From the NCBI GenBank assembly GCA_003250475.1, contig QKGI01000065.1:15240-79239 (forward strand): DNA of 64,000 nucleotides, in the 5' to 3' direction. The notes below the pieces were generated by a model. The model ran no database searches. It was not told the DNA's origin and saw only the letters and a list, made by a program, of their open reading frames with translations. Origin of the DNA: Bacteroidota bacterium (lineage in GTDB: Bacteria; Bacteroidota; Bacteroidia; Bacteroidales; VadinHA17). This document shows, piece after piece, positions 1,968 through 41,971 of this stretch (within the stretch, counting starts at the first letter, position 1; every line of letters starts with the position of its first letter). The translations under genes were made by a program, and so were the position numbers.

Positions 1968-1982
1968 TGTCTTATGGTTTAT

Positions 1983-2116
1983 AGTCTGAAGGTAGAATTT
2001 CCCCGCCCTGCAGTCTGGCTCCTTCACTAAAATGATCCACAGGATCATTTCTTGACGCTCGGACCGGTCTGAAGGTCTGAAGTCTGAGGTCTGTTGTTTC
2101 GATGTGTCTTGCAGTC
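1983..2116. repeat. GTCT-family intergenic repeat element, copy 1 (69-bp core 2006..2074 flanked by GTCTGAAG-type and GTCTTGCAG units)
   Basis: Core 2006..2074 matches 35106..35174 at 68/69 positions. It contains the hairpin AAATGATCC-aca-GGATCATTT (2030..2050) and the palindrome GACCGGTC (2062..2069). Flanks are AGTCTGAAGGT (1983..1993), GGTCTGAAGGTCTGAAGTCTGAGGTCTG (2066..2093) and GTCTTGCAGTC (2106..2116). Confidence 0.85.
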
Positions 2117-5124: not shown

Positions 5125-7394
5125 AATACTGTCAACAGGGTCTTTTGAAGGTCGGCATCACATGATGAGGGACCTGTCATGATCTCAAAATCACCCGGTT
5201 CAACCACATATTTCATGTCAATATTATGAAATGCCAGTTTGTCGGGTGTAATCTCAAAGGATACCTTTCGTGTTTCACCGGGCTTAAGTGATATACGTGC
5301 AAAGCCTTTCAACTCCTTCACCGGTCTTGTAACGCTGCTTATAAGGTCTCTGATATATAGCTGTACAATTTCATCACCTGCCATCTTTCCGGTATTTGTT
5401 ACCTCCACCATCACACGGGCAGCTTCTCCTTTCTTTATTTTGTTCTTTTTGAGGACCGGTTTTCCATAGTTGAACTCTGTATAACTTAACCCGAAGCCGA
5501 AGCAGAAAAGAGGATTTACATCCTGGGATATGTAGTCCATATACTGGGCGCTTGGTTTGTGATTATAATATAGCGGCAACTGTCCTGCCGACTTCGGGAA
5601 GGTTATAGTAAGCTTTCCTGAAGGATTCACTTCACCGAAGATGATGTCAGCTGCAGCGTTTCCGGTCTCCTGTCCCATATACCATCCTTCGATTATTGCA
5701 GGTACCTTTTCTGTAAGACTGTTTATGGCCAGCGGGCGTCCGTTCATAAGGTAAAGCACGACAGGTTTGTTAAGGGCAGTGATTGCTTCCGCCAGCTCAT
5801 TCTGTTCGCCGAAGAGGTCAAGGGTCATGTTATCACCGATATGGTTTTTTGCCCATGCTTCACGGCAGAGATGTTCATTCTCTCCCAGGGCAAGTATGAT
5901 GACATCAGCGCCTGAAGCAACTTTCACCGCTTCCCTGATGAGTTTGAGGTTCTCCTCACGGGAGGCAAACTTTATCTCATCATATTTCCAGTTGAAATAA
6001 CTGCCTGTAGTGTTTATCGTCAGTCTGCAGCCCTGGGCAAAGAGCACCTCGGTGCCGTTGCCGGCCCTTGTTCTTATGCCATCAAGCAGGCTCGTCTTCT
6101 CATATGGCTCCCCGGAGTAGCCCCCGAACCACAGGTCTTTGGCGCAGGGTCCTATTACGGCTATCTTCCTGTATGTTCCCCTTTTTAAGGGGAGAAGGTT
6201 CTCATTCTTCAGCAACACTATCGATTCATGGGCTGCCTGCAAAGCCATCTTCCTGTGCGACAATGATTTGCTGACGGCGATTGCATTCTTCTCCTCAACA
6301 AAGGGATTTTCAAACAATCCGAGGCTGAACTTGAATGCCAGGACCTGCTCTACTGCTTTGTCGATATCCTCCTTCCTGATCTTTCTTTTTCTTACCAGGT
6401 CGGGGAGTATCCGGTACATGTTACCCTGCGGGAATTCATACTGTACTCCTGCGTTGAAAGCTGTTGCCGCAGCTTCCGTTGCGTCGCCGCATACAAAATG
6501 TTTGTTAAACAGCTGGTCAATGCCATAATAGTCTGACACGATCATTCCCTTGTAACCCCACTCGTTACGCAACAGATCTTTTAACAGCCACCTGTTGGCA
6601 TGTGACGGTACACCGTCCACCTCATTATAGGAGGGCATGACGGAGACCGGTCTGGCATGGTCGATACACATCTTAAACGGAGGCATATGGTAGTCGCGTA
6701 ATACCCGCATGGAGTAGTTGGCAGGGCCCTGGTTCAGCCCGCCCTCCGACTCGCCATGACCAGCAAGGTGTTTCAGTGTGGCAGCCACGTTGTTGTTCCT
6801 GACTATGCCTGTATCACTTCCCTGCAGGCCCTTTACGGCTGCTATTGAGAGCATACCGTTGAGATAGGGATCCTCACCGTAGGTCTCTTCGGTCCTTCCC
6901 CATCTTGGATCACGGCATACGTCTATTACAGGGGTTAGTGCATGATGTGTGCCACGGGATCTCATCTCATGAGCTACTGTGCTGTATACTTTTTCAAACA
7001 GTTTTGTATCCCATGAACATGCCAGCCCGATAGCCTGGGGGAAGACAGTGGATTCTGGTCTCATCATCCCATGCTGACCCTCATCGACAAAGAGAGCCGG
7101 TATGCCCAGCCTGGTCTCTTCAACAAGGTATTTCTGGATGGTGTTACGCATCCTGACTGTATCCCTGATGCCGAAGGGCGCGGGATGAACAGAATGGCAC
7201 CCCTTGCCAAAGATATCTTTCATCATGACAGGGTCGTCGAAGATCTCCGGCTTGAAATCCTCTACACCACCGTTCCATAGTCCCATGAGCTGAGCACATT
7301 TCTCTTCCATGGTCATGCGTGTCATAAGGTCGTCCACCCTTTTCCTGACAGAGAGGGAGGCGTCTTTATACGGTACTTTTGCTGATTGTCTCAT
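5121..7394 (-). CDS. GH3 beta-xylosidase/beta-glucosidase (BglX-like), no signal peptide
   Basis: 757 aa. GH3 motifs GRTEETYGEDPYL, KHLAGHGESEGG and GMIVSDYYG (nucleophile Asp). The N-terminus MRQSAKVPYKDASLSVRK is not signal-like. Confidence 0.85.
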   Translation of the reverse strand: MRQSAKVPYKDASLSVRKRVDDLMTRMTMEEKCAQLMGLWNGGVEDFKPEIFDDPVMMKDIFGKGCHSVHPAPFGIRDTVRMRNTIQKYLVEETRLGIPALFVDEGQHGMMRPESTVFPQAIGLACSWDTKLFEKVYSTVAHEMRSRGTHHALTPVIDVCRDPRWGRTEETYGEDPYLNGMLSIAAVKGLQGSDTGIVRNNNVAATLKHLAGHGESEGGLNQGPANYSMRVLRDYHMPPFKMCIDHARPVSVMPSYNEVDGVPSHANRWLLKDLLRNEWGYKGMIVSDYYGIDQLFNKHFVCGDATEAAATAFNAGVQYEFPQGNMYRILPDLVRKRKIRKEDIDKAVEQVLAFKFSLGLFENPFVEEKNAIAVSKSLSHRKMALQAAHESIVLLKNENLLPLKRGTYRKIAVIGPCAKDLWFGGYSGEPYEKTSLLDGIRTRAGNGTEVLFAQGCRLTINTTGSYFNWKYDEIKFASREENLKLIREAVKVASGADVIILALGENEHLCREAWAKNHIGDNMTLDLFGEQNELAEAITALNKPVVLYLMNGRPLAINSLTEKVPAIIEGWYMGQETGNAAADIIFGEVNPSGKLTITFPKSAGQLPLYYNHKPSAQYMDYISQDVNPLFCFGFGLSYTEFNYGKPVLKKNKIKKGEAARVMVEVTNTGKMAGDEIVQLYIRDLISSVTRPVKELKGFARISLKPGETRKVSFEITPDKLAFHNIDMKYVVEPGDFEIMTGPSSCDADLQKTLLTVL

Positions 7395-7414
7395 CTTATT
7401 TGATTACGGTTTTA

Positions 7415-8533
7415 TTACTTCAGTTTTGCAGCCTCTTTAATAATGGCGTAGTATGCCGGCTTTGGATTATAATCCCGGTCAAACAACAGCGGATAGTTGG
7501 TACGGCCCGGTATTGGCCAGTCATTCTTCCACGAGTAACCGTCATTTATCCCCCAGAATGTCACCCTAGAAACCTGGTCACTGTGCCTGAGCAGCAGCCT
7601 GAACAATTCGGCATACCTGTCAGCAAGCTGTAACCCAACAGAGTCAGGAAGCTCCTTTGCATAGGGATTAAGGGAATCGCGGTATTCGGCCGTCTTTGAT
7701 ATCTCGGCTCCATACAGCCAGGCCGGTGTGGGAAGCACATTGATCTCCATCTCGGTAATCATGACCTTCATTCCCAGGTTTGCATATTCGTTTATGCTTT
7801 CGTCCACGACAGTGAAATCCGGTGAGTCGAGATGCCAGTGCCCCTGTATGCCCACGCCGTCAATACGTATACCCTTCTCCTTCAGGTTGGTTACGATTGC
7901 TGTCACCCCGGCTCTCTTCAACGGCTCTTCGTTGTTGTAGTCGTTGTAATAGAGTTCTGCTTCCGGATCAGCTTCATGTGCATACCGGAATGCCATTTCT
8001 ATATAGTCGTCACCTATTATACTGAGCCATGGTGTCTGCCTCAGGCTGCCATCCTCGTCCACTGCCTCGTTAACCACATCCCATCCAAGGACCTTTCCCC
8101 TGTAGTGGCCGACCACCATCTGGATGTGGTCTTTCATTCTTTCCAGCAGGGCTTCACGTGTCAGCTGGTTTCCCAGGGAGTCGCGGAAGACCCAGTCGGG
8201 CGTCTGTGAATGCCATACCAGGACATGACCTATGACCGCCATCCCGCTGTTCTGAGCAAAATCCATGATACTGTCAGCCAGGTCAAAGTAGTATGTTCCC
8301 GGTTCAGGGTGTATCCTTTCCCACTTCATCGCGTTTTCTGCAGTGACAGCGTTGAAATGCTCCGTAATGAACGGCAGCGCCCCGGGGTCTGCTCCGGAGA
8401 GCTCGCGCCTGTCTATGGAGGTTCCGATAAGGAAGTGGCCGGCAAAGACATCTTTTAGTCCGGGCGCATCGCTGTCGCATGAAGTGAGGAGCGTAACCGA
8501 AATCAGTACTGCGGGCAGTATTTTGTTCTTCAT
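7415..8533 (-). CDS. GH10 endo-1,4-beta-xylanase, lipoprotein
   Basis: 372 aa. Lipobox LLTSC. GH10 catalytic blocks WDVVNEA (acid/base Glu) and ITEMEI (nucleophile Glu). Confidence 0.9.
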   Translation of the reverse strand: MKNKILPAVLISVTLLTSCDSDAPGLKDVFAGHFLIGTSIDRRELSGADPGALPFITEHFNAVTAENAMKWERIHPEPGTYYFDLADSIMDFAQNSGMAVIGHVLVWHSQTPDWVFRDSLGNQLTREALLERMKDHIQMVVGHYRGKVLGWDVVNEAVDEDGSLRQTPWLSIIGDDYIEMAFRYAHEADPEAELYYNDYNNEEPLKRAGVTAIVTNLKEKGIRIDGVGIQGHWHLDSPDFTVVDESINEYANLGMKVMITEMEINVLPTPAWLYGAEISKTAEYRDSLNPYAKELPDSVGLQLADRYAELFRLLLRHSDQVSRVTFWGINDGYSWKNDWPIPGRTNYPLLFDRDYNPKPAYYAIIKEAAKLK

Positions 8534-8552
8534 GATCTGTCTCTTTTTCGGA

Positions 8553-10010
8553 TTACCCTGCGTATTCCTTTCTCCGTTCTGTTAGCTCGTCCTGCATCTG
8601 GTATTCGACCTTTTTACCTATGCCGTAAATGAACAGTGCTATCACGCAGAGTACAAGTGCCACGACAGGGAATAAACTTACTGACAGCCTGATGCCCTGT
8701 ATTGCTGTTGGTGTCTGAACCACATTGGCAACATAGCCGTATGCATTCAGCAACCATCCTGCAAGTGCACCTCCTACAGCAAGTCCTACCTTCAGTCCTA
8801 CTACAATGGCTGCAAACACTATCCCCGTAGCACGGCGGTTGAACTTCCATTCGGAGTAGTCTGCCACGTCAGCCATCATAGCCCATGGCAGGGGCATGGT
8901 AACTCCCCAGGAGAAGTTAAACAGGATTGAAAGGATAAGTATAAGTGTTACCCCGGATGGCGGTGCCACAAAGAAGAGAGCTGCCATCAGGCCGGCCACA
9001 ATAAGCCATATTCTGAAGACGTCTCTTTTCCCGAACCTCTTGGCAAGGGCATTGCCAACGGCTATGCCGGGCAGCGCTGCCAGCTGACCCAGGATATTGA
9101 TCACGCTGAAGCTGTTGTCGGCATAGTTGGCACCGACAGATGTCAGGTTGAGCCCGCCGAGAAGTCCGAAGAGCACTTTGTCGGCGTTGACAAGGAAGGT
9201 TCTCATGCTCTCCGGGTCAAGATAATACTTGAAATAGTAGAGTAGCATGCTGTTCCGCATGGCAAGGAAGATGAACATAAAGAGAAATACAATGAACATC
9301 AGAACCCACTGCCTGTTGTGCAACAGGTCAGAGAGGTCCTGCCTCAGTGATGTTTTTTGCTGCGGAGGAGGGACAATCCGCTCTTTTGTCGTAAAAAATG
9401 TTATCAGGAAAAACAGTATTGCCAGAGAAGCAAAAATACCCATTGTGATCTGGTATCCCCGGGCGCTGCTGCCCTGTCCGAAGTGGTTAACCATAGGCAG
9501 GGTAAAGCCCATAATAGCTATTGTTGCAAGTGTCACAGCCACAAACCGGAAGGAAGAAAGGCTGGTACGCTCCTTCATCTTCCCTGTTATGACACCGCTC
9601 AGGGCTGCGTATGGATTGTTGTTTGCAGAATAGACAGTGAGCAGGAGCAGATAGGTAATGTAGGCATAGATCAGTTTGCCTGTTGATCCGAAGTCAGGGG
9701 TCCTGAATGCAAGGTATCCCAGCACCCCGAAAGGAATGGCCGTCCACAGTATCCATGGCCTGAACTTACCCCACCGTGTATTTGTCCGGTCAGCCAGAGC
9801 GCCGAAGACCGGGTCACACACAGCTCCCCATAACCGGGCCACAAGAAACAACGTAGCAGCTGCACCTGCCGTCAGGCCGAAGGTATCTGTATAAAAGCTG
9901 AGCTGAAGCAGCATCATTGTCTGAAAGATGAAGTTGGCTGCACCATCTCCGAGGCTGTAGCCGACCTTCTCTTTAACCGATAGTTTCCCTGTTTCCGGTT
10001 GCATCATCAT
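8553..10010 (-). CDS. Glycoside-pentoside-hexuronide (GPH):cation symporter, probable xylo-oligosaccharide importer
   Basis: 485 aa, about 12 hydrophobic segments. GPH-type N-terminus LSVKEKVGYSLGDGAANFIFQ. First gene of the minus-strand xylanolytic operon. Confidence 0.8.
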   Translation of the reverse strand: MMMQPETGKLSVKEKVGYSLGDGAANFIFQTMMLLQLSFYTDTFGLTAGAAATLFLVARLWGAVCDPVFGALADRTNTRWGKFRPWILWTAIPFGVLGYLAFRTPDFGSTGKLIYAYITYLLLLTVYSANNNPYAALSGVITGKMKERTSLSSFRFVAVTLATIAIMGFTLPMVNHFGQGSSARGYQITMGIFASLAILFFLITFFTTKERIVPPPQQKTSLRQDLSDLLHNRQWVLMFIVFLFMFIFLAMRNSMLLYYFKYYLDPESMRTFLVNADKVLFGLLGGLNLTSVGANYADNSFSVINILGQLAALPGIAVGNALAKRFGKRDVFRIWLIVAGLMAALFFVAPPSGVTLILILSILFNFSWGVTMPLPWAMMADVADYSEWKFNRRATGIVFAAIVVGLKVGLAVGGALAGWLLNAYGYVANVVQTPTAIQGIRLSVSLFPVVALVLCVIALFIYGIGKKVEYQMQDELTERRKEYAG

Positions 10011-10189: not shown

Positions 10190-11233
10190 ATGACAGGAAT
10201 GAAGAAAAAATCGGAGGTCACCATTTATGACATCTCAAAGGTGCTGAACATCTCGGCATCTACCGTCTCGCGTGGACTCAACAATAGTCCGCAGGTAAGA
10301 AAAGACCTCCGGCGCAAGATAATGCAGACAGCCCAGGAGATGGGTTATCAGCACAATAAGTTTGCATCAAATCTAAGGCAGAAGAGGACAAGAACGCTCG
10401 GGGTGGTGATCCCCCGGATAGACAGTCACTTCATGTCAAGTGTGATATCAGGCATGGAGAAGATAGCCAATAACTCGGGTTATCAGCTGCTTATAAGCCA
10501 GAGCGAAGAGTCAGCCACACTGGAGGAGGCAAATATCCAGGCGTTGTTCAACAGCCGTGTTGACGGTATGCTCGTATCACTCTCTTTTGAGACAAAGAAC
10601 AGTGACGCCTTTAAGAATATTTTCCGCAGGGATATCCCTCTCGTGTTTTTCGACAGGGTCTTCGAATGCAACAACTGCGTAAATGTGGTTATTGATAATT
10701 ACAGGGCAGGATACGATGTCACCAAACACCTCATTGACCAGGGGTGCAGGAAGATTGTACATGTGGGGGGGAGCCTGAACCGTAATGTTTATAATGACCG
10801 GTACCGAGGATACAGGCAGGCGCTGGCAGACAACTCGATCCCGTTTGATGACAGGATGCTGATCTTAACCGATCTGGGAGACAGCTCAGGCGTGGCTATT
10901 ATAAACCAACTGCTGGGCGACGGCTCTATGCCTGACGGCATCTTCACGGCAAATGACAATACAGCTGTATCGATCATTTGTGAGCTGAAGAAAAAAGGTT
11001 ACCGGGTGCCCGATGATGTTGCAGTGGCCGGATTCAATGACGACCCTGTATCGCGCATTGTGGAGCCCAACCTTACAACAGTACACTATCCGGGCAGAGC
11101 TATGGGAGAGGTAGCTGCCTCAACAATTATCAGGATACTTGACGGTACTCAGTACGAGAGAGTGAACTCGATAATACTGACCTATGAGCTGATCATACGT
11201 GAATCATCACTCAGGTCAGTCAATACTGCCTGA
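10190..11233 (+). CDS. LacI-family transcriptional regulator
   Basis: 347 aa. N-terminal HTH TIYDISKVLNISASTVSRGLNN followed by a periplasmic-binding-protein-like sugar-binding fold. An alternative start is at 10199. Confidence 0.9.
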   Translation: MTGMKKKSEVTIYDISKVLNISASTVSRGLNNSPQVRKDLRRKIMQTAQEMGYQHNKFASNLRQKRTRTLGVVIPRIDSHFMSSVISGMEKIANNSGYQLLISQSEESATLEEANIQALFNSRVDGMLVSLSFETKNSDAFKNIFRRDIPLVFFDRVFECNNCVNVVIDNYRAGYDVTKHLIDQGCRKIVHVGGSLNRNVYNDRYRGYRQALADNSIPFDDRMLILTDLGDSSGVAIINQLLGDGSMPDGIFTANDNTAVSIICELKKKGYRVPDDVAVAGFNDDPVSRIVEPNLTTVHYPGRAMGEVAASTIIRILDGTQYERVNSIILTYELIIRESSLRSVNTA

Positions 11234-11235
11234 GG

Positions 11236-13392
11236 ATGAAAGCAAGGATTGTCACATTCCTGCTGATTATACTGCTTTCTCCTGTTATTCCGGCAAAAGG
11301 AGATGACGGGTACAGGCTCTGGCTCAGGTATGGCCGGATCACTGACAGGGCATATCTCAGGGAGTGCAGTAAAAGACTGGGAAGTGTGATGGTCAATGGC
11401 GGGTCTCCTGTCCTGGAGGCTGCGTATGATGAGCTTGTTACCGGATTGGAGGGTATGACCGGCATGGAAATAGATATGGTGCATACCCCTGGTGGTAACT
11501 GGACCGTGGCTGCCGGCACCCTGCAGTCGACACCCCTTCTGGCATCGCTTCTTCCTGATATCAGCCCGGGCTCTCTCGGTGAGGAGGGCTATGTAATCAG
11601 AACGGTTAAATCGGGCAGGAGGAGCCTGACTCTGATTGCTTCGGAAGGGGACAGGGGTGTGCTCTATGGTGTCTTCCACCTGCTGAGGCTTGTCAGTATG
11701 CAGGACCCGCTCCATGATCTGTCAATCCTCGAAAAGCCGGCAGTGACTCTCCGGCTCCTGAACCACTGGGATAATCTTGACGGCAGTGTTGAGAGGGGCT
11801 ATTCCGGATGTTCACTCTGGAACTGGCATCTGCTTCCGCATTACATATCACCCCGGTACAGGGACTATGCAAGAGCCAATGCTTCCATAGGTATTAACGG
11901 TACGGTACTTACCAACGTGAATGCAAATGCCCTTGTGCTGACTCCCCGGTACCTGGCCGGGGTAGCTGCCATAGCCGATGTAATGAGACCATACGGCATT
12001 AAGGTATACCTCACTGCACGATTCAGCGCCCCTTCAGAGATAGGCGGGCTTGCCACCTCCGATCCTCTCGATGCTGAAGTGATCAACTGGTGGAGAGACA
12101 AGGTCACCGAGATATATACCTTCATTCCTGATTTCGGAGGATTTCTTGTCAAGGCCAACTCGGAAGGGCAGCCTGGCCCGCAGGACTACGGGCGCACTCA
12201 CGCTGACGGGGCGAATATGCTTGCAGACGCTCTGGCTCCATACGGAGGAGTGGTAATGTGGCGGGCGTTTGTTTATGATAACAATGTGCCCGTTGACAGG
12301 GCCATGCAGGCCTATAATGAATTCCTGCCCTCTGACGGTTCTTTCAGGGACAATGTCATGTTACAGGTAAAAAACGGACCTGTTGATTTCCAGCCGCGTG
12401 AACCTTTTCACCCGCTCTTCGGTGCCATGAAGGATACGCCGATGATGATGGAGTTCCAGATTACCAAGGAGTATCTTGGCTGTGCCACACACCTTGTTTT
12501 CCTGGCGCCTCTCTTTGAGGAGGTGCTCAGAAGCGACACCTATGCCAGGGGGCCCGGGTCAGAGGTTTTCAGGGTGATTGACGGATCATTGTACGGCAAC
12601 AGGCTGACAGGGATAGCCGGTGTGGCCAACACCGGGTCAGACCGTAACTGGACAGGTCACCTCTTCGGGCAGGCCAACTGGTATGCGTTCGGACGTATGG
12701 CATGGCAGCCGGAGCTCTCCTCAGGGCAGGTCGCCACCGAATGGATAAGGATGACTCTGACACATGACAAGGAAACAGAGATGGGTATTAAAAAGATGAT
12801 GCTCAGCTCACGGGAAGCTGCTGTTAATTACATGACACCGCTGGGATTGCACCACATAATGGCAGAGGGTCATCACTGGGGGCCTGGCCCATGGGTAGAC
12901 CAGGGACGTCCGGACTGGACCTCAGTCTATTATCACAGGGCTGACACTGCCGGGATAGGCTTTGACCGTACCCGCGAAGGCAGTACCGGCGTAAGTCAGT
13001 ACTTCCACCCGCTCGACGGGATACTTAATGATCCTCATACATGCCCGGAAAACCTGCTTTTGTGGTTTCATCACCTGCCGTGGGATTACATAATGAGATC
13101 AGGCAACACTCTGTGGGATGAGCTATGCCTTAAGTACCAGGAAGGAGCAGACAGCGTAGAAGAGTATGCCTCTTTCTGGGAGACATTGCAGGGGGAAATT
13201 GATGATGAACAGTATGAACATGTAAGGCAGATGCTGGTAATACAGCATAATGAGGCCATATGGTGGAAGGATGCCTGCCTGCTGTACTTTCAGACCTACT
13301 CGCACAGGCCATTCCCTGAAGGGGTGCATCCTCCTGAACATGACCTGGATTATTACAGGGGACTTAAATTCTATTATGTTCCGGGCATATAG
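11236..13392 (+). CDS. aguA: GH67 alpha-glucuronidase
   Basis: 718 aa with a signal peptide. GH67-type N-terminus DDGYRLWLRY, plus NHWDNLDGSVERGYSG and KANSEGQPGPQDYGRTHADGANMLA blocks. It starts 2 nt after the lacI stop. Confidence 0.85.
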   Translation: MKARIVTFLLIILLSPVIPAKGDDGYRLWLRYGRITDRAYLRECSKRLGSVMVNGGSPVLEAAYDELVTGLEGMTGMEIDMVHTPGGNWTVAAGTLQSTPLLASLLPDISPGSLGEEGYVIRTVKSGRRSLTLIASEGDRGVLYGVFHLLRLVSMQDPLHDLSILEKPAVTLRLLNHWDNLDGSVERGYSGCSLWNWHLLPHYISPRYRDYARANASIGINGTVLTNVNANALVLTPRYLAGVAAIADVMRPYGIKVYLTARFSAPSEIGGLATSDPLDAEVINWWRDKVTEIYTFIPDFGGFLVKANSEGQPGPQDYGRTHADGANMLADALAPYGGVVMWRAFVYDNNVPVDRAMQAYNEFLPSDGSFRDNVMLQVKNGPVDFQPREPFHPLFGAMKDTPMMMEFQITKEYLGCATHLVFLAPLFEEVLRSDTYARGPGSEVFRVIDGSLYGNRLTGIAGVANTGSDRNWTGHLFGQANWYAFGRMAWQPELSSGQVATEWIRMTLTHDKETEMGIKKMMLSSREAAVNYMTPLGLHHIMAEGHHWGPGPWVDQGRPDWTSVYYHRADTAGIGFDRTREGSTGVSQYFHPLDGILNDPHTCPENLLLWFHHLPWDYIMRSGNTLWDELCLKYQEGADSVEEYASFWETLQGEIDDEQYEHVRQMLVIQHNEAIWWKDACLLYFQTYSHRPFPEGVHPPEHDLDYYRGLKFYYVPGI

Positions 13393-13421: not shown

Positions 13422-14459
13422 ATGAATGACAGACACTGGGAGGACCTATTAAAGGTCATAAAAGGCGAGAAGACGAAGGAGCAGCCCGTGGGTTTTATTA
13501 TTGACAGTCCATGGCTGCCGGGGTGGCATGGATCAACAATACTTGAATATTATACTGATCCGGTGACCTGGTTTGAAGCCAATGCCGGTGCCCAGGAAGC
13601 TTTTCCCGATGTGATGTTCCTGCCCGGTTACTGGGCAGAATACGGGATGTGCACTGAACCGTCAGCCTTTGGGACAAAACTGGTATGGGCAGAAAATGAC
13701 TTTCCCCATCCGGTAAAACTCCGGTGCACAACTGAGGCTGTCTCTTCACTGGAAAAGCCTGATGTAAAGACTGACGGACTCCTGCCTTTTGTCATCAGCA
13801 GGATGGAAAAATATGAGGAGAGACTGAAAAGGAACGGATGTAACTACCGGTTCGCTTCCAGCCGCGGCCCTCTGAACATAGCCTCCTTCCTCTTTGGCAC
13901 AACAGACTTCATGATGGCACTGGCCATAGCGCCTGATGAGGCCGCGAAGGCTCTCAGTGTGATTACGGATTTTGTCATAGACTGGCTTACTCTCCAGTAT
14001 GAAAAATTCCCGGAAATAAGAGGAGTATTCCTGCTCGATGATATTGTAGGCTTCCTTGGACAGCCTGACTTTGAGACCTTCGTGTTACCTCATTTAAAGA
14101 GAATATACAGCACCTTTGATCCTGAGGTCAGTTTTTTCCATAATGATGCTTCGGGACTGATAACAGCAAGTTACCTTGAAGAGATAGGTATCAATCTGTT
14201 CAATTTCAGTTTTAATCACTCCTTCGAAGAGATAAGAAAAATTGCAGGAGAGAGGGTCACCCTTGTTGGAAACCTGCCGCCGAGGGATGTTCTTGCACTG
14301 GGAACACCGGCCGCCGTGGAGGCGGGCGTAATAGCCATGATGCGCACGGTTAAAGACAACAAAAGGATAATATGGTCATGCGGCGGTGGTATGCCACCTG
14401 ATGCTTCTACGGAAAATATACGTACATTTATCTCGACAGTGAGAAGTTTCTATAAATAA
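13422..14459 (+). CDS. Uroporphyrinogen-decarboxylase (URO-D) superfamily protein; HemE versus MtaA/CmuA-like methyltransferase not resolved
   Basis: 345 aa, cytoplasmic. Overall URO-D/MtaA-like pattern (..RGPLNIASFLFG.., ..FFHNDASG.., ..IWSCGGGMPPD..). The His-x-Cys zinc motif of MtaA-type enzymes reads His-Asn-Asp here. Confidence 0.55.
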   Translation: MNDRHWEDLLKVIKGEKTKEQPVGFIIDSPWLPGWHGSTILEYYTDPVTWFEANAGAQEAFPDVMFLPGYWAEYGMCTEPSAFGTKLVWAENDFPHPVKLRCTTEAVSSLEKPDVKTDGLLPFVISRMEKYEERLKRNGCNYRFASSRGPLNIASFLFGTTDFMMALAIAPDEAAKALSVITDFVIDWLTLQYEKFPEIRGVFLLDDIVGFLGQPDFETFVLPHLKRIYSTFDPEVSFFHNDASGLITASYLEEIGINLFNFSFNHSFEEIRKIAGERVTLVGNLPPRDVLALGTPAAVEAGVIAMMRTVKDNKRIIWSCGGGMPPDASTENIRTFISTVRSFYK

Positions 14460-14467
14460 AAAAACGT

Positions 14468-15961
14468 ATGTTATTACTTGGTATTGACCTTGGCAGCTCA
14501 TCAGTGAAAGTCTCTGTCGTTGACGGAGAAACCGGCAGAACCATTTCCTTATCTTCATATCCGCCTTCCGAGATGGAGATTTCGGCGCCCATGCCCGGAT
14601 GGGCTGAGCAGGATCCGGAAGTGTGGTGGAAGAACTTCTCCCTGGCTCTCGGGGCCTGCCTGGAGCCTGTCGGGTCAAAGAGAAAGGATATAGGTGCCAT
14701 AGGCATATCCTACCAGATGCATGGTCTGGTCATGGTTGATAAGGAGCATGAGGTATTGCGTCCCTCGATAATCTGGTGCGACAGCAGGGCTGTAGAAACA
14801 GGACAGAGAGCCTTTGAGAAGATGGGAAAGGACTTTTGCCTTCATCACCTTCTTAATTCACCGGGAAACTTCACTGCATCAAAACTGGCATGGGTAAAAG
14901 AGAATGAGCCGGCCATATATGAGAGAATCTATAAGATAATGCTTCCGGGCGATTACCTGGCGATGAGGCTCACTGATGAGATAAGGACAACATACACGGG
15001 ATTATCTGAAGGGATTTTCTGGGACTTTATGAGGGGTGAAATATCGGAAGAGCTACTCGATTACTACGGTATTGACCCGGAGCTGCTTGCTGAACCGGTG
15101 AAGTCATTTGCCCTGCAGGGCAGGCTTACTGATAAAATGGCGGAAGAGCTGGGGCTTACGGCAGGAATCCCTGTCTCATACAGGGCAGGTGACCAGCCCA
15201 ACAATGCATTGTCACTCAATGTTCTGCAGCCGGGTGAGGTAGCTACCACAGCAGGCACCTCAGGGGTTATCTACGGTGTCACCGACAAGACACAGTTCGA
15301 TCCGATGTCACGTATTAACACCTTCCTTCATGTAAATCATACCGAGCGCATAACACGCCTGGGAGTACTGTTGTGTATCAATGGCACCGGTATCCTCAAT
15401 TCGTGGCTCAATAAAAATACCGGCGGAGGGCTGACATACAGCCGCATGAACGAGATGGCTGCCGGTGTTGAGCCGGGCAGTGACGGTCTCTTTATCCTTC
15501 CGTTCGGCAACGGTGCAGAAAGGATGTTTCAGAACAACAACATAGGTGCCTCTGTGCACCGGCTGAACTTCAATATTCACCGGCAGGCACATCTCTACCG
15601 GGCCGCCCAGGAGGCCATCGCTTACTCTTTCCGCTTTGGCCTTGAGATAATGAAGGAGACAGGTATAAACCCGACAGTTATCAGAGCCGGTGAGTCAAAC
15701 ATGTTCCTAAGCAAGGTATTCAGGGATATACTTTCAAGCCTTACCTCTACGGTGATAACACTGTACAATACAGACGGCTCCGTCGGCGCAGCACGCGGTG
15801 CCGGGATAGGCTGCGGATATTACAGGTCGGAGCAGGAAGCATTCAGGGGACTGGAGGTCACCGGGTCAAGTGAACCTGACAACGAGCTGTCAATGATATA
15901 CGATGCCAGGTACATGGAATGGCTTGAGCTTCTTGATGATCAGTTATATGAACAGAAATAA
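14468..15961 (+). CDS. xylB: Xylulokinase (FGGY family)
   Basis: 497 aa. [13 protein letters not shown]-terminal ATPase motif and GDQPNNALS. Immediately upstream of xylA. Confidence 0.9.
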
Positions 15962-15965: not shown

Positions 15966-17288
15966 ATGGTAAAAAAGAGCAAAAGTGAGATCTTCCCAGG
16001 TATTGGTAAGATACAGTATGAAGGACGGGATTCAAAGAATCCACTTGCTTTCAAATGGTATGACCCTGAGGCCAGGGTAGGGGGCAGAAAGATGAAGGAT
16101 ATCCTCCGGTTTGCAATAGCCTACTGGCATTCATTCTGCGGTGACGGTACCGATACCTTTGGAGCAAAGACCAGAGATTTTCCTTACGACGGTATGGAAG
16201 GTGATGACCGTATAAGAGTGAAGCTGGATATGGCCTTTGAATTCATTGAGAAGATCGGTGCTCCGTTTTACTGCTTCCACGACACCGATCTCGTGGGTGA
16301 CGGTCCGGTATTTGAAATAGAGAAACGTCTTGAGAAATGGGTGCCTGTTATCAAAGCCAGACAGAAAGAAACCGGGATTAAGCTCCTGTGGGGTACTGCT
16401 AACCTGTTCGGCAATCCCCGTTATATGAACGGTGCAGCCACTAACCCTGATTTTAACGTTGTTACCAATGCTGCCGTTCAGCTGAAGAATGCCATTGATG
16501 CAACCATTGCTCTCGGCGGACAGGGATATGTGTTCTGGGGAGGACGTGAGGGTTATCTGTCGCTCCATAATACGGATATGAAGCGTGAGCTTGAACACCT
16601 GGCTATGATGCTTACCCTGGCCCGTGACTACGGACGGAAGAATGGTTTTAAGGGCGTCTTCTATATTGAGCCTAAGCCGATGGAACCCACGAAGCATCAG
16701 TATGACTATGATGCTGCTACGGTGATAGGCTTCCTGCGTCACTACGGTCTTGATCAGGACTTCAAGCTGAATGTCGAGGTCAATCATGCCACGCTTGCCG
16801 GTCACTCTTTCCAGCATGATCTGCAGACTGCTGCCGATGCAGGTATGCTGGGCAGTATAGATGCCAACAGGGGTGACTATCAGAATGGGTGGGATACGGA
16901 TGAGTTTCCCACAAATATCAACGAGATTACCGAAGCCATGCTGGTAATCCAGATGGCCGGAGGTTTTAAAACGGGAGGCGTAAACTTTGACGCTCATGTC
17001 AGGCGTAACTCCACCGACCCTGAAGATCTCTTCATAGCTCATATTAACGGTATGGACACATTCGCCAGGGGACTGATTATTGCAGACCGTATCCTCAGGG
17101 AGTCAGACTATCTCAGGTTGCGTAAGGCAAGATATGCCTCCTTTGACAAGGGTAACGGAGCTTTATATGAGAAGGGCAAGCTTACCCTTGAAGAGCTGCG
17201 TATGCTGGCCATGAAGGATGGCGAGCCGAAAAAGATCAGCGGCAGGCAGGAGCTTTATGAGCAACTCATAAATATGTATATCATCTGA
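15966..17288 (+). CDS. xylA: Xylose isomerase
   Basis: ORF 15903..17288. The true start is the ATG at 15966 ([20 protein letters not shown]), 4 nt after the xylB stop. [15 protein letters not shown] and [13 protein letters not shown] blocks. Confidence 0.95.
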
Positions 17289-17294: not shown

Positions 17295-18722
17295 ATGGCT
17301 CTCTTCACCCCCCTGCGCCGCTGGCAGCCTGCCTTTCATCCGTTCGTAAGGTTATCAGCCGGCAGCAGGCTGCTTACGCTGGTTGAGCGGGTAATCAAGG
17401 GGCCGCTGTTCGGGTGCAGGATGTGTGGAAACTGCCTCCTGCAGGAGACTGCCTTCATATGTCATATGGAGTGCCCGAAAGGGATCAGGAACGGTCCGTG
17501 TGGTGGAGTACATGACGGCTACTGCTATGTGGATCCGAAAAGAAGATGTGCATGGCATCTTATAAATGAGCGGGCACGCAGGTTACACAGGGAACATAAG
17601 CTCCTGGAGGTGCTGCCGCCGGTGGACTGGGACAGGGCCGGGACAGAGACATGGGGGGAGGTCGTAAAAAAAGTCAGGGAGACAGGGCTTCGTAATATCA
17701 TGATGCCTTCAGCCAGAAAGGGAAAGAGTGCAGGAGATGTGCTTGAGGAGGAGGTGTTCAGACCTATCCGGCAGCCATTGTGGTGGAGCGGAGATTCGGA
17801 GTATCATGCACCGGCAGTGGCTGAGCCTCAGTCCCATCTTGAGAGGGAGCTGGGCAGCGGCAGGTTCGTCATCACGGTTGAGGTGACACCCCCGGTGAGC
17901 GCTGCCACTGGCAAACTTGAAGAGAAGATAAAGCTGTTGAAACCCTTTGTCTCAGGCATTAATTTTACCGATGGTTCCTCGGCGGTACCCAGGATGTCAA
18001 GCGCAGCCTGTTCGGCCGTTGCGGCGTCACTGGGGGCAGACCCGGTAATGCAGGTATCAGCCCGTGACAACAACCGCAATAGCCTGCAATCGCAGGCCGT
18101 AGGTGCCAATGCTATAGGAGTATATAACATACTCTGCCTCTCGGGCGACAGCCCGCGGGTAGGACCGAAGCCTCACAGCAGCATGAATATCCTGGATGTG
18201 GATTCTGTGCAGATGCTGTGGATCCTCCGTAGGATGAGGGATGAGGGCATTTATCTCGATGGCCGTGAGTTGAAAAACAGACCGCACCTGTTCCTTGGAG
18301 CTGCCACGGCACCCTTCGCCCAGGAGCCGTATATGCAGGCTTTGCGCATCAGGAAAAAGATCAACGCAGGAGCCCAGTTCATCCAGACAAACCTTGTCTT
18401 CGATCCTGACAGCCTCGACCCCTGGCTTGAACAGCTGGATAAAGAGGGGCTGCTTGATAAAGTGTTTATCCTGGCCGGGATCACTCCGCTGAGGTCAATG
18501 CGTCTTGCTCATTATCTTAATGATCATATTCCCGGGGTGACCATCCCCGAAGAGATAATGAAGAGGCTGTCACGTGCCGGCGATGGCTTTGCGGAAGAGA
18601 GCATTGCCCTTACTGTTGAGAATTTAAGAAGACTCAGAAAGAAACAGGGAATCAGCGGAGTTCATATAATGCCACTTGGCTGGGAGACAGTAGTACCATT
18701 GATTATTGAAAAGTCAGAATGA
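17295..18722 (+). CDS. MetV-MetF fusion: Cys-rich MTHFR_C-type domain fused to a methylenetetrahydrofolate reductase (MetF) barrel
   Basis: 475 aa. The N-terminal ~100 aa are CRMCGNCLLQETAFICHMECPKGIRNGPCGG..GYCYV..RRCAW. The C-terminal ~290 aa are MetF-like (FVITVEVTPP.., INFTDGSSA.., ILCLSGDSP.., AGAQFIQTNLVFD). Confidence 0.65.
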   Translation: MALFTPLRRWQPAFHPFVRLSAGSRLLTLVERVIKGPLFGCRMCGNCLLQETAFICHMECPKGIRNGPCGGVHDGYCYVDPKRRCAWHLINERARRLHREHKLLEVLPPVDWDRAGTETWGEVVKKVRETGLRNIMMPSARKGKSAGDVLEEEVFRPIRQPLWWSGDSEYHAPAVAEPQSHLERELGSGRFVITVEVTPPVSAATGKLEEKIKLLKPFVSGINFTDGSSAVPRMSSAACSAVAASLGADPVMQVSARDNNRNSLQSQAVGANAIGVYNILCLSGDSPRVGPKPHSSMNILDVDSVQMLWILRRMRDEGIYLDGRELKNRPHLFLGAATAPFAQEPYMQALRIRKKINAGAQFIQTNLVFDPDSLDPWLEQLDKEGLLDKVFILAGITPLRSMRLAHYLNDHIPGVTIPEEIMKRLSRAGDGFAEESIALTVENLRRLRKKQGISGVHIMPLGWETVVPLIIEKSE

Positions 18723-20515
18723 AACTTGTAACCTCAAGGGAGCTTGCCAAAGCTACAAATCTTGATACTCCGGGCGGAGTATTCATCGCTGAGGCCCTGA
18801 TGCAGATATTCCGCTATAACAAGCTGAACAAATTATACTCAAGCTCCTATGCCAGTGATCCTTCAATATTTATCAATTCCATCCTGAGGCACCTGGATAT
18901 TAAATATGAGGTACCGGATAAAGACCTTGAGAACATACCGCTGACCGGCTCTTTTATTACAGTTTCAAACCATCCTTTTGGCGGAATAGATGCCCTGATC
19001 CTGCATAAGATACTGGCGGCGCGTCGCCCTGATGTAAAAGTGATGGCTAACTTCCTGCTACAGAGGATTGAGCCTCTTAAAGACCTTATAATACCTGCGG
19101 ATCCTTCTGAGAACTACCACAACAGCAAACTGTTATATACGAGCATAAGGGAGACTCTGAGGTATGTGAAAGAGGGCCATCCTGTTGCCATTTTCCCGGC
19201 GGGTGAGGTATCGACATATCAGTCGGAATCGGGTCTCATAACAGACAGGGAGTGGCAGGAGATACTTCTCAGGGCAATAAGGATTGCAGAAGTACCGGTG
19301 ATACCTGTATATTTTCACGGTACAAACTCACGCTGGTTTCATATACTGGGTCGTATCCATCCTCTTCTGGGCATTGCCAGGCTCGGCTCGGAGATGATAA
19401 ACAAACGACATAATGTGATCAGGGTAAGGATAGGTAAGCCCGTGACCGTTAAGGAACAAGCTGACCTGGGAGATGTCGCCCGTTTCGGTCGCTACCTGAG
19501 AGCAAGAACCTATTCTCTGGGGTCAGCCCTGGAGGCAAGGCCCTTTTTCAGGAACTTCAGGAAGCGAAGGAGCCGCAGGCAGGAACCCGTGGAGAGCCCC
19601 GTAGACCGTAAAGTGCTGATGGAAGAGATCAGTACTGTAAGGCAGTCATATGAGCTTTTTACAAACAAGAATTACCTTGTGCTCTTCGCCCCGACACGCG
19701 TTATCCCCAATCTTATCAGGGAAATAGGAAGACTCCGGGAACTGACATTCAGGGAGGTGGGAGAAGGGACAAACAGGGCAACAGATCTTGATGAGTATGA
19801 CTTTTACTATCACCATCTGATTGTCTGGGACGATGATGCGGGAGCTGTTGTCGGAGCCTACAGGCTCGGGAAAGGGAAAGAGATACTCAGCCAGTATGGC
19901 ATAAAGGGTTTCTATATCCATTCGCTTTTCAGGATCCGCAGGTCATTTGAGCCTGTCCTCAGTGAGTCGCTTGAGCTTGGCAGATCATTCATCGTGAAGG
20001 AGTACCAGCGAAAGGCGATGCCTCTCTTCCTCCTGTGGAAAGGATTGCTGTCGGTCCTTGTCATGCATGCCGAGTACAGGTATCTTATCGGTCCTGTAAG
20101 CATAAGCAACGAATTCTCATCCCTGTCCAAATCGCTGATTGTCGACTTCATCAGGAACAACTGCTATGACTCCTCAATGGCCCGGTTCATAAAACCCAGG
20201 AAAAAGCTCAACCTGCAGGTAGACAAACGTATTGACCGTGATATTATCATAGCTTCGGCGGAGAAGGATATCAGCAAGGTTGAGAAAGTGGTCAGTGATG
20301 TGGATTCCGGGTTCAGAATACCTGTACTGCTTAAAAAGTACCTTGAGATCAATGCTAAAATAATTGGTTTTAATGTGGACCCTGACTTCAATAATTGCCT
20401 TGACGGTCTTATAATGCTTGATGTGTACGAGATCCCTGCAGATTTTGTAAATGCACTTTCACGTGACCAGAATGAGGAAAAGGTAAAGAAGAGATTCGCC
20501 GGCCAGAACAAATGA
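18719..20515 (+). CDS. olsF: Bifunctional O-acyltransferase/N-acyltransferase (OlsF-like aminolipid synthase)
   Basis: 598 aa. N-terminal PlsC-like acyltransferase (VSNHPFGGIDAL, FPAGEVS). C-terminal OlsB/GNAT-like domain (FREVGEGTNRATDLDEYDFYYHHLIVWDDDAGAVVGAYRLG). ATGA overlap with the upstream gene. Confidence 0.65.
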   Translation: MKLVTSRELAKATNLDTPGGVFIAEALMQIFRYNKLNKLYSSSYASDPSIFINSILRHLDIKYEVPDKDLENIPLTGSFITVSNHPFGGIDALILHKILAARRPDVKVMANFLLQRIEPLKDLIIPADPSENYHNSKLLYTSIRETLRYVKEGHPVAIFPAGEVSTYQSESGLITDREWQEILLRAIRIAEVPVIPVYFHGTNSRWFHILGRIHPLLGIARLGSEMINKRHNVIRVRIGKPVTVKEQADLGDVARFGRYLRARTYSLGSALEARPFFRNFRKRRSRRQEPVESPVDRKVLMEEISTVRQSYELFTNKNYLVLFAPTRVIPNLIREIGRLRELTFREVGEGTNRATDLDEYDFYYHHLIVWDDDAGAVVGAYRLGKGKEILSQYGIKGFYIHSLFRIRRSFEPVLSESLELGRSFIVKEYQRKAMPLFLLWKGLLSVLVMHAEYRYLIGPVSISNEFSSLSKSLIVDFIRNNCYDSSMARFIKPRKKLNLQVDKRIDRDIIIASAEKDISKVEKVVSDVDSGFRIPVLLKKYLEINAKIIGFNVDPDFNNCLDGLIMLDVYEIPADFVNALSRDQNEEKVKKRFAGQNK

Positions 20516-22929: not shown

Positions 22930-24549
22930 ATGTCCAGGAATCTGAGAGGGCTCTCTGCCCGCAGAGGCCTCAGTGAGGGTCTTTATGAAGATATTGTGGG
23001 AGCCGGTGGGTCCACTCAGCCTGCGGGGCTGAAAAATGTTGCCGGTAAGTTTATGACAGGTGGGGCTGCCGTCATGAGCGCAGGTTCGTTTTATGATTTC
23101 CTTAACCCCGTTCATCAGGGGAAAAAGGTTTACGTCTGTGACGGCACTGCCTGTCTCACATCAGGGAAACAGGGTGATGTCAGGAGTGCGCTTCTAAAGA
23201 GTTTTTCTGAGGATGAGATAGGCACAATGACCTGTCTGGGCCATTGCCACTCAAATGATGCCTTCATGGTCAACGGTGAGGTTCGCCTGTATGAAACCGG
23301 AAATGATCCGCAGGAGCTTAAACCCCGGACAAACGCCGACCGGCCGGCACTTATTGCACCGCAGGGTGAGATCGGTGATTACTATTCCCTTGCCGGGAGA
23401 TGGGTTTCCGATCTCTCCGCCGCCCTTGGGGAGCTTGAGTTGTCAGGGCTGAGGGGCCGTGGCGGAGCAGGCTTCCCGTTCCATATAAAGGTCAGGTCGG
23501 CACGCGATGCCGGATCAGGGCAGAAATATATAGTATGCAACGGTGATGAGGGTGATCCGGGGGCATTCTCCGACAAATGGCTGCTTGAGGAACGTCCTCA
23601 TTCAGTGCTCTTCGGAATGCTTATGACAGGTCTTATCATTGGGGCTGACACCGGGGTTATATATGTCAGGGGAGAATACCCGCTGGCGGTGAAGAGGATG
23701 AGAGAAGCGGTAAGTGCGCTTGAAGAGGCAGGCATCACCGGGGCGACTGATGACAATGCCGGGTACCGTTTCCGCTTTCATGTGGTGGAGGGATCAGGAG
23801 CCTATATATGTGGTGAGGAGACCTCTCTTCTCAACTCTATCGAGGGGTTGAGGCCGGAGGTTCGCACCCGTCCGCCCTTCCCTGCGGTGTATGGACTCTT
23901 CGGGATGCCCACCGTACTGAGTAATGTGGAGACGTTTGCCAACATTCACAATATACTTGAAGCGGGTGGAACCCACTGGGCTTCACTCGGCACCGACAGG
24001 TCGCCAGGCACCAAGCTGGTATCACTTGACGGTGCCTTTAACAGGCCGGGATTACTTGAGGTCAGGATGGGGACGCCCCTGAGCGTTGTCATCAATGAAA
24101 TGGGGGGAGGAACACGTTATCCCGTCAAGGCATTTCAGATCGGCGGACCGCTGGGAGGACTGGTACCTGCATCGAAGGTCGATGATCTTACACTCGACTT
24201 TGAATCATTTGCCGGCGGGGGTTTCCTGCTGGGGCATGCCGGGATAGTGTCCGTGCCGGATGACTTCCCGGTGATCAGGCTCCTGGAACACCTGTTTGAA
24301 TTCACCATGAAGGAGTCGTGCGGGAAATGTTTCCCCTGCCGCCTTGGCTCGGTACGAGGTTATGAGTTGCTGTCACATGCATCAGAAAAGGGAGAGAAGA
24401 TCAGCCGGCGACTATTTGACGATCTCCTGGAGACGATGCAACTGGGATCGCTGTGTGCCCTGGGAGGGGGATTGCCATTGCCGGTAAAAAATGCATTACG
24501 ATATTTCAGCGATGAGATGGATGGTTTCTTCAGGAAAGGAGAGGAGTAG
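22930..24549 (+). CDS. NAD(H)-binding diaphorase subunit (fused NuoE-like 2Fe-2S + NuoF-like FMN/4Fe-4S), formate dehydrogenase beta-type
   Basis: 539 aa. NuoE-type cysteines CDGTAC..CLGHC, then GRGGAGFP, YIVCNGDEGDPGAFSD (FMN/NADH site) and ESCGKCFPCRLG (4Fe-4S). Confidence 0.8.
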   Translation: MSRNLRGLSARRGLSEGLYEDIVGAGGSTQPAGLKNVAGKFMTGGAAVMSAGSFYDFLNPVHQGKKVYVCDGTACLTSGKQGDVRSALLKSFSEDEIGTMTCLGHCHSNDAFMVNGEVRLYETGNDPQELKPRTNADRPALIAPQGEIGDYYSLAGRWVSDLSAALGELELSGLRGRGGAGFPFHIKVRSARDAGSGQKYIVCNGDEGDPGAFSDKWLLEERPHSVLFGMLMTGLIIGADTGVIYVRGEYPLAVKRMREAVSALEEAGITGATDDNAGYRFRFHVVEGSGAYICGEETSLLNSIEGLRPEVRTRPPFPAVYGLFGMPTVLSNVETFANIHNILEAGGTHWASLGTDRSPGTKLVSLDGAFNRPGLLEVRMGTPLSVVINEMGGGTRYPVKAFQIGGPLGGLVPASKVDDLTLDFESFAGGGFLLGHAGIVSVPDDFPVIRLLEHLFEFTMKESCGKCFPCRLGSVRGYELLSHASEKGEKISRRLFDDLLETMQLGSLCALGGGLPLPVKNALRYFSDEMDGFFRKGEE

Positions 24550-24551
24550 TC

Positions 24552-37803: not shown

Positions 37804-37853
37804 TAACAGGTTGATTAGCTTCAATATCAGTTATATCTCGATGAAAGGCATCT

Positions 37854-38837: not shown

Positions 38838-38857
38838 GGTTTCTGTCTCTTTCAAAG

Positions 38858-41969: not shown

Positions 41970-41971
41970 AA

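Follow-up and report, generated by a model that had tools for sequence, protein, structure and literature searches.

The xylan cluster and its URO-D gene

The 64-kb window considered here, that is, the whole stretch of Bacteroidota DNA that was analysed (64,000 nucleotides), carries a xylan-utilization cluster in which a gene for a URO-D-fold protein lies between an alpha-glucuronidase gene of glycoside hydrolase (GH) family 67 and the xylulokinase gene xylB. The open reading frame (ORF) spans positions 13422-14459 of the plus strand, starts with ATG, ends with TAA, and encodes 345 amino acids. Its product is a candidate for the donor-side methyltransferase (MT1) of a corrinoid (B12)-dependent O-demethylase acting on 4-O-methyl-D-glucuronate (MeGlcA). 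In the xylans of hardwoods and many dicots, this sugar acid is the principal acidic side chain, and its 4-O-methyl group blocks the route through 2-keto-3-deoxygluconate (KDG) and KDG-6-phosphate (KDPG) aldolase, as reasoned from the established pathway. The gene and its surroundings comprise the following features.

13422-14459, plus strand: URO-D-fold protein of the 'DSPW...HND' subfamily, candidate 4-O-methyl-glucuronate:corrinoid methyltransferase (donor-side, MT1; PF01208, AlphaFold2 and Foldseek, corrinoid-linked relatives)
14133-14156, plus strand: FFHNDASG motif (residues 238-245), with H240-N241-D242 aligned to the H-N-C zinc motif of an MtaA-like paralogue
10190-11233, plus strand: LacI-family regulator, first gene of the plus-strand operon, kept in 14 of the 14 loci of the clade at least 66% identical to the protein
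11236-13392, plus strand: GH67 alpha-glucuronidase with signal peptide, releasing (Me)GlcA from aldouronates (Pfam GH67 N, M, and C domains; N-terminal leader)
14468-15961, plus strand: xylulokinase XylB (TIGR01312, 303 bits)
15966-17288, plus strand: xylose isomerase XylA (NF003998, 655 bits, alignment from residue 29)
17295-18722, plus strand: MetV-MetF fusion (DUF5981 plus MTHFR), methylene-tetrahydrofolate reductase (Pfam and NCBIfam matches)
18719-20515, plus strand: OlsF-like ornithine-lipid synthase, next gene after the MetV-MetF fusion in the same operon
24-2048, minus strand: SASA-type carbohydrate esterase (profile match)
2125-5124, minus strand: GH115 alpha-glucuronidase with signal peptide (PF15979 and PF17829)
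5121-7394, minus strand: GH3 beta-xylosidase-like protein, no leader (profile match, leader check)
7415-8533, minus strand: GH10 endoxylanase with lipoprotein leader (profile match, leader check)
8553-10010, minus strand: glycoside-pentoside-hexuronide (GPH) cation symporter (TIGR00792, 385 bits; glucuronide-transporter model, E 1.9e-77)

An earlier note on this DNA, made from the sequence alone, places GH67 next to the URO-D gene, and the Pfam domains show both GH67 and GH115 in the window. The GPH symporter is a likely importer of xylo-oligosaccharides, aldouronates, or glucuronides. Export signals are present on GH67, GH115, GH10, and the SASA esterase and absent from GH3, XylB, XylA, and the URO-D protein.

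The gap between the URO-D ORF and xylB measures 8 nt, as previously given, and that after the GH67 stop codon 29 nt rather than 30. The listed xylA ORF begins at 15903 and overlaps xylB by 59 nt, but since the family alignment begins near residue 29, translation probably starts from the ATG at 15966, 4 nt past the xylB stop. The MetV-MetF gene, absent from the earlier note, follows xylA after 6 nt and overlaps the next gene by 4 nt; it is of the acetogen style, with a zinc-ribbon, Cys-rich DUF5981 N-terminus. Xylose, one-carbon, and lipid genes are thus mixed in one operon, which is an odd combination. No plus-strand terminator-like site was found in the intergenic gaps from GH67 through OlsF. 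Co-transcription, which the earlier note had called almost certain, is on this basis plausible.

A URO-D-fold protein distinct from HemE and MtaA

The protein matches the URO-D profile PF01208 over its full length in a Pfam search (120.4 bits against a cutoff of 23.9, E 1.1e-34; residues 8-342 on profile positions 5-345 of 346). Together with the lack of a signal peptide, this bears out its earlier description as a cytoplasmic URO-D-fold protein of 345 residues. An AlphaFold2 model built on a 31-sequence alignment (pLDDT 94.1, pTM 0.93) has the URO-D (beta/alpha)8 barrel; it replaced a model from 18 close sequences (pLDDT 72.8), in which HemE and MtaA could not be separated. In Foldseek, the closest structure is MtaA (4ay7/4ay8; TM-score 0.81-0.83, root-mean-square deviation 3.1-3.2 Å), with HemE structures slightly below (TM-score 0.74-0.81).

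The protein shares fold and PF01208 with HemE, but its score against the HemE equivalog model TIGR01464 is 57.4 bits, with a cutoff of 302.95. The conserved binding and catalytic residues of HemE are, in human numbering, R37, R41, D86, Y164, and H339. When aligned with the Escherichia coli enzyme (sequence checked at 99.7% identity), R27, R31, Y154, and H327 are replaced by I27, P30, F156, and G322, the region of D77 being poorly aligned, and the RQAGR motif of HemE becomes DSPW. The score and the replaced residues rule out the identity as HemE, and the protein does not group with it. There are also no haem genes in the window, in accordance with the earlier remark that haem synthesis is out of place here.

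The MtaA/CmuA models likewise score far under their cutoffs (TIGR01463, 58.8 against 235.4; NF004889, 60.7 against 244). The zinc ligands H225, C227, and C306 of an MtaA-like protein correspond to H240, D242, and G322, so that the His is kept and both Cys are absent; the reading of His-Asn-Asp in place of His-x-Cys was exact by alignment. A zinc site rebuilt as His/Cys/Cys by means of C320 was rejected, as C320 is clade-specific and off the ligand position. On these sequence comparisons, the protein is neither HemE nor MtaA. The URO-D-type MT1 enzymes CdmB and the Moorella O-demethylase contain no zinc (PMC13222342), and therefore the missing H-x-C motif is compatible with an MT1 function. The only related MT1 match of the protein in the PDB, CdmB 9rui, is weak (E 0.1-0.2).

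The DSPW...HND family and its corrinoid linkage

Homologues of the protein are numerous: 7573 at E<=1e-5 among 8000 scored candidates, 1273 family clusters at 50% identity in an exhaustive search, and at least 544 'DSPW...HND' loci confirmed in a scan of species-representative genomes. They occur in Bacteroidales, Prolixibacteraceae (including Maribellus and Draconibacterium), Sedimentisphaerales, Phycisphaerae, Verrucomicrobia, Chloroflexia, and Acidobacteria. The signature of the family comprises D28-S29-P30-W31, E73, E79, R148, Q192, D206-D207, H240-N241-D242, N261, N284, and S319-x-G-G-G. H240 is invariant and N241 nearly so in an alignment that extends down to 23% identity.

All loci at least 66% identical have the gene in a xylan cluster, always after LacI, usually with GH67 before and XylB/XylA after it. 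The minimal form of this xylan clade is LacI followed by the URO-D gene, divergent from GPH-GH10-GH3-GH115.

When the first 85 loci were searched by tblastn with the B12 module of MetH, one match was obtained, locus L083 from a member of the Chloroflexia (L numbers denote loci of relatives). Its URO-D protein is 54% identical to the one under study, and the gene of a canonical corrinoid protein (DxHxxG, SxL, and GG motifs; PF02607 and PF02310) ends 3 nt before it. Downstream is an MtaA-like URO-D paralogue that has H-N-C...C, and upstream, in divergent orientation, a homocysteine methyltransferase gene. Close homologues of this corrinoid protein are abundant, the best 120 named matches being all from Acidobacteriota and none from Bacteroidota. 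Two of them, on megabase contigs (L175 and L176), belong to a module of homocysteine methyltransferase, corrinoid protein, URO-D protein, and Met_synt_B12, the MetH reactivation domain (PF02965). The URO-D proteins of L083, L175, and L176 are 49-54% identical to ours; that of L176, at 49%, is 55-59% identical to planctomycete relatives that have no nearby corrinoid protein. The URO-D and MtaA-like genes of L175 (10665-12737) are called as three fragments of 310, 182, and 204 residues, which indicates frameshifts or assembly errors in that metagenome-assembled genome.

A more distant group, clade D (around P0136, about 31% identical), shares the DSPW/HND signature and was found in 80 peat and soil loci in a metagenome scan. 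These loci form one narrow lineage (80-84% identical), and the following counts are not independent. Of the 62 loci whose downstream flank reaches 0.8 kb or more, 57 have a corrinoid protein gene after the URO-D gene; among those with enough flank for the next genes, 36 of 40 continue with a RACo/AcsV-type activase and 27 of 30 with a homocysteine methyltransferase. L175 and L176 have the MetH activation domain in place of RACo. Because the homocysteine methyltransferase fills the acceptor role in clade D and in L176, the URO-D protein is the sole candidate there for the donor-side enzyme. Between RACo and the homocysteine methyltransferase there is always a protein of about 270 residues, 'c4' (L103:13608-14426 and about 35 other clade-D loci), with no sequence match in Pfam, NCBIfam, or PDB.

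In a neighbour-joining tree, crude and without support values, clade D falls outside the 82-member orthologous group of the protein and the L083 group is nested inside it. Corrinoid-linked members therefore bracket the xylan clade. The corrinoid-linked members share 85 invariant columns; in 15 of the 15 xylan-clade sequences, 64 of these are retained, including every polar one, the polar ones being the candidate catalytic residues.

Linkage to glucuronidases and hexuronate catabolism

Other genomes, too, place the gene near alpha-glucuronidases, and this holds for three separate subfamilies (the xylan clade, clade D, and P0128), which answers the question raised earlier of a linkage elsewhere. 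GH67 or GH115 is present in 12 of the 80 clade-D loci. L103 is a single same-strand operon of an enolase-superfamily acid-sugar dehydratase, URO-D protein, corrinoid protein, RACo, c4, homocysteine methyltransferase, SDR, and GH67, and in L156 the order is GH115, URO-D protein, corrinoid protein, and RACo. In P0128, of the third subfamily, GH67 is divergently adjacent to the URO-D gene, the contigs of P0128, P0174, and P0122 being short and giving limited gene context. GH67 is normally a rare gene per genome, and for this reason its recurrence across distant subfamilies is far beyond chance, as judged without a formal statistic.

Genes of hexuronate catabolism are also found next to relatives. 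In L073 the order is UxaC, URO-D protein, and TRAP transporter. P0123 is flanked by an enolase-superfamily dehydratase on one side, and by SDR, a zinc-dependent alcohol dehydrogenase (Zn-ADH), and KDPG aldolase on the other. At P0125, three URO-D paralogues in a run precede UxaC, and UxaE is nearby. In L087, three tandem, divergent URO-D paralogues (5646-9050; 384, 361, and 349 residues) lie directly upstream of UxaC; an Opp-type ABC transporter, an amidohydrolase, a glucosamine-6-P-isomerase-like gene, and GDSL genes are on the other side. No corrinoid protein was found within 8 kb in L087.

A methyl-tetrahydrofolate enzyme in the xylan clade

L177 (71% identical) has the same LacI-GH67-URO-D-XylB-XylA order and the same downstream synteny as the locus studied here, but its slot after xylA holds, in place of MetV-MetF, a pterin-binding protein of 270 residues. 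This protein matches the methyl-tetrahydrofolate (methyl-THF):corrinoid methyltransferase model NF005719 (210 bits, E 4e-62) as well as the folate module of MetH. Pterin-binding enzymes of this MeTr type act as the acceptor-side methyltransferase (MT2) of bacterial O-demethylases (PMC13222342). The presence of two different methyl-THF enzymes in one operon slot suggests a link of the operon to methyl-THF, as judged from a single replacement event.

In the region 13869-15196 of L177, the MeTr-type gene lies between spacers of 238 and 277 nt with short direct repeats (e.g., ccgcagaagagagcg twice, and cgccgccaatcgcc-like runs), and the G+C content of the gene is 0.576, compared with 0.494 for xylA. 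The repeats and the higher G+C content suggest a recent insertion.

Proposed function and alternative explanations

The URO-D protein is proposed to act as the MT1 of a corrinoid-dependent O-demethylase for MeGlcA, an assignment that we regard as somewhat likely, with nearly as much room for doubt. What is observed is the fold, the exclusion of HemE and MtaA, and the gene linkages; from these we infer which substrate is used, which way the methyl group moves, and that partners act in trans. An oxygen-free handling of the 4-O-methyl ether, as the earlier note had supposed, gains support from the comparative genomics. In the proposed pathway, GH10, GH67, and GH115 would free MeGlcA or aldouronates in the periplasm, and the GPH symporter would bring them into the cytoplasm. 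There the URO-D-fold enzyme would bind the sugar acid and activate the ether oxygen, probably through the H240/D242/D206/D207/E73 cluster. Cob(I)amide would accept the 4-O-methyl group, and the plain glucuronate that remains would enter the hexuronate pathway. The methyl-corrinoid might then be discharged to tetrahydrofolate by a MeTr-type enzyme, with the methyl-THF being oxidised by the co-operonic MetV-MetF, or alternatively to homocysteine, giving methionine. The corrinoid carrier, the activase, and the acceptor-side enzyme would be encoded elsewhere in the organism or shared with methionine synthase.

Several observations weigh against this assignment. In agreement with the earlier note, tblastn with the MetH B12 module detected no corrinoid-binding protein or B12-binding domain encoded in the 64-kb window; among the loci at least 51% identical, a B12 domain occurs within 10 kb in one of 80, and none was found in L177 and L178. 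A search of the window, L001, L083, and L103 for a cobalamin riboswitch was negative, and uxaC, uxuAB, and kdgKA are absent from the window. The window likewise contains no RACo/RamA-type activase and no acceptor-side methyltransferase, MetV-MetF standing where the latter lies in L177. MetV-MetF is syntenic among close relatives only, and OlsF in the same operon is unrelated. Most relatives at 51-57% identity stand beside Gfo/Idh/MocA, DUF6807, ThuA, and Nramp-like genes, unrelated to methyl transfer, contexts for which the model gives no account. The narrowness of the clade-D lineage and the crudeness of the tree, both mentioned above, count in the same direction. As leaving groups, moreover, aliphatic sugar methyl ethers are inferior to the aryl ethers and halides on which the known URO-D-type MT1 enzymes act. 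Both caveats of the earlier note are softened, since zinc-free MT1 enzymes are known (PMC13222342) and corrinoid genes are operonic with the subfamily elsewhere, but the corrinoid partner in this organism was not found.

The absence of a B12 domain near 79 of these 80 loci also speaks for a different explanation, unlikely in our estimate but to be taken seriously. According to it, the Bacteroidota/Planctomycetota branch would be corrinoid-independent, sharing ancestry with the corrinoid-linked members, and would catalyse another step on a uronate or sugar acid, such as a loss of methanol by beta-elimination with acid/base or metal assistance, or else an isomerisation or decarboxylation. The 4-O-methyl group is beta to the C6 carboxylate, a geometry as in mannonate dehydratase or polysaccharide lyases; conserved acidic, His, and Asn residues are densely clustered and might form a site for a metal or a sugar; HemE itself is cofactor-free; and oxidoreductases, DUF6807, ThuA, and TIM-barrel isomerases are frequent partners. 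However, corrinoid-linked members bracket the clade, with one group nested within it, all polar residues invariant in those members are kept, and the xylan-clade operon contains a methyl-THF:corrinoid methyltransferase or MetV-MetF. To our knowledge, no member of the URO-D superfamily is a lyase. A corrinoid-dependent MT1 with another donor, either a methoxylated aromatic from xylan-lignin complexes (e.g., ferulate) or a different methylated sugar, is given less credence still. All characterised URO-D-type O-demethylases use aryl methyl ethers (PMC13222342), and relatives located beside GH38 (L176), GH3 and GH116 (L175), or a sulfatase and GH78 (L015) suggest a variable range of substrates; yet no feruloyl esterase or aromatic-catabolism genes were found in the window, and it is with GH67/GH115 and hexuronate enzymes that the association is closest and recurs most often. 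MeGlcA is, as far as we know, the only methylated product of GH67 and GH115.

That MtaA is the best structural match, and that the NCBIfam MtaA/CmuA scores are marginally above the HemE score, could be taken to indicate an acceptor-side, MtaA-like enzyme (MT2) passing the methyl group from a methyl-corrinoid to a thiol or other acceptor. This is very improbable, considering that D242 and G322 stand in place of both zinc-ligand Cys, that a homocysteine methyltransferase already holds the acceptor role in clade D and L176, and that a separate MtaA-like protein with H-N-C...C accompanies the URO-D protein in L083. A genuine HemE lying in a sugar operon by chance is effectively refuted: database names do read 'uroporphyrinogen decarboxylase', and the PDB sequence matches are HemE (E 5e-7 to 1e-8), but the TIGR01464 score, the lost RQAGR motif and binding residues, the lack of haem genes in the window, and the linkage to glycan loci kept across phyla all argue to the contrary.

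Comparison with known methyltransferases and demethylases

Three-component corrinoid methyltransferases are known; a new substrate class, a new MT1 subfamily, and a new genomic setting would be added here. A close parallel is provided by MtvB, OdmB, VdmB, and the archaeal MtoB, the MT1 enzymes of aryl methyl ether O-demethylases. They have the same URO-D TIM-barrel fold and the substrate:corrinoid methyltransferase role proposed here, and relatives of our protein share operons with genes for a corrinoid protein, an activase of the RACo/RamA type, and a methyltransferase for the acceptor side, as in those systems. The MeTr-type pterin-binding MT2 of L177 and an oxygen-independent chemistry are further similarities. 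Their donor is an aryl ether, whereas an aliphatic carbohydrate ether is proposed in the present case, and the protein belongs to a separate DSPW...HND subfamily, on comparisons that covered HemE, MtaA/CmuA, and CdmB. In contrast to the aryl O-demethylases, many relatives use a homocysteine methyltransferase and a MetH activation domain instead of a tetrahydrofolate enzyme, and the protein itself is encoded inside a xylan cluster with no corrinoid protein in cis.

The haloalkane:corrinoid methyltransferases CdmB and CmuA are also donor-side members of the URO-D superfamily, CdmB being zinc-free (PMC13222342). CdmB has a hydrophobic haloalkane channel, whereas the family described here has a polar conserved pocket (D28, S29, E73, E79, R148, D206, D207, H240, N241, D242, N261, and N284), which, as predicted from sequence, suits a sugar acid. 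The methylcobamide:coenzyme M methyltransferases MtaA and MtbA are the closest in structure, and the His of their H-x-C motif is conserved and aligned; unlike them, the protein has neither zinc Cys, and it is predicted to transfer the methyl group in the reverse direction.

In Ruegeria, the substrate-specific MT1 of the MtgB/MtgC/MtgD system supplies a cobalamin-binding core that serves methionine synthesis as well (PMC12478193). This is a precedent both for encoding an MT1 away from a corrinoid core that is shared and for the 'split MetH' arrangement of L176 and clade D. MtgB differs in belonging to the MttB superfamily and in using a quaternary amine, glycine betaine, as substrate.

Removal of methyl ethers from sugars has been described in marine Bacteroidota, in which cytochrome P450s demethylate 6-O-methyl-D-galactose in an oxygen-dependent reaction (PMC6292453); a literature search found no other described sugar O-demethylases. 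In both cases a methyl ether that blocks sugar catabolism would be removed by the product of a gene in a polysaccharide utilisation locus. The P450 reaction is oxidative, requires oxygen, and releases formaldehyde, whereas a nucleophilic transfer to cob(I)amide would need no oxygen and would keep the methyl group as methyl-THF or methionine. No paper joining MeGlcA, xylan, or methylated sugars with corrinoid methyltransferases or URO-D-like proteins was found in the literature search, and MeGlcA demethylation by anaerobes appears to be undescribed. A paper on Me-MeGlcA (ACS Omega) concerns the methyl ester and glucuronoyl esterase and is not relevant to the ether.

Other gene contexts in relatives and in the window

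Outside the xylan clade, gene neighbourhoods are diverse, the ORF calling in the relatives being crude. In the nearest outgroup of the clade, L015, the URO-D gene follows the sulfatase, near GH78. One operon type among the relatives at 51-57% identity consists of GcvP, URO-D protein, DUF6807, and Oxidoreduct_C. Another (AraC, URO-D protein, DUF6807, ThuA, a TAT-signal Gfo/Idh/MocA protein, and SDR) occurs in Prolixibacteraceae and relatives (L026, L044, L048, L054, L058, L079, and L084); the partner proteins carry export signals and the URO-D protein does not, and the demethylase model leaves this operon unexplained.

Planctomycete relatives of the same identity range show GFO, SSS, a dehydrogenase, a second URO-D protein, an Nramp-like protein, and the URO-D protein, and three planctomycete loci again include xylan genes (SASA, GH43, GH10, GPH, and CE4). 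The Nramp-like protein, a distantly related membrane protein of 587 residues, is encoded directly upstream of the URO-D gene in 16 Planctomycetota loci (L018, L021, L024, L032, L034, L035, L040, L043, L045-L047, L049, L060, L062, L067, and L071). An SSS transporter, a HIBADH-type dehydrogenase, and a second, MtaA-like URO-D paralogue are often found upstream of it.

Further downstream in the window (22930-27299, plus strand), a NuoF-like flavoprotein is followed by a molybdopterin subunit of the formate-dehydrogenase type with several Fe-S domains. Both genes are syntenic with the xylan operon throughout the close relatives and could finish the oxidation of the methyl group to CO2, or their position could be coincidental. 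At 36772-43282 on the minus strand, there is a run of same-strand ORFs of 350, 335, 384, 321, 331, and 436 residues. Four have no Pfam match, one contains leucine-rich repeats, and one an OmpA domain; the run may represent an uncharacterised cell-surface operon.

Implications

If the assignment is correct, the missing enzyme for anaerobic demethylation of MeGlcA would be named, and corrinoid-dependent O-demethylation would reach aliphatic sugar ethers, beyond aryl ethers and halomethanes. The common mis-annotation of these proteins as uroporphyrinogen decarboxylase would be corrected, and L103 and L176 offer operons suited to expression.

A broader and more speculative possibility, which we consider rather unlikely, is that the 'DSPW...HND' proteins are widespread unrecognised carbohydrate methyl-ether demethylases, with clades tuned to different O-methyl sugars. 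Members with no nearby corrinoid protein would dock on the B12 module of methionine synthase or on a shared corrinoid core. Such a function would extend over at least 544 species-level genomes of Bacteroidota, Planctomycetota, Acidobacteriota, Chloroflexota, and Verrucomicrobiota, and the methyl ethers of plant and algal glycans would be converted directly to methionine or methyl-THF. Fibre degradation in gut, digester, sediment, and peat would, if MeGlcA is demethylated as proposed, be tied to the supply of B12 and to one-carbon and methionine metabolism.

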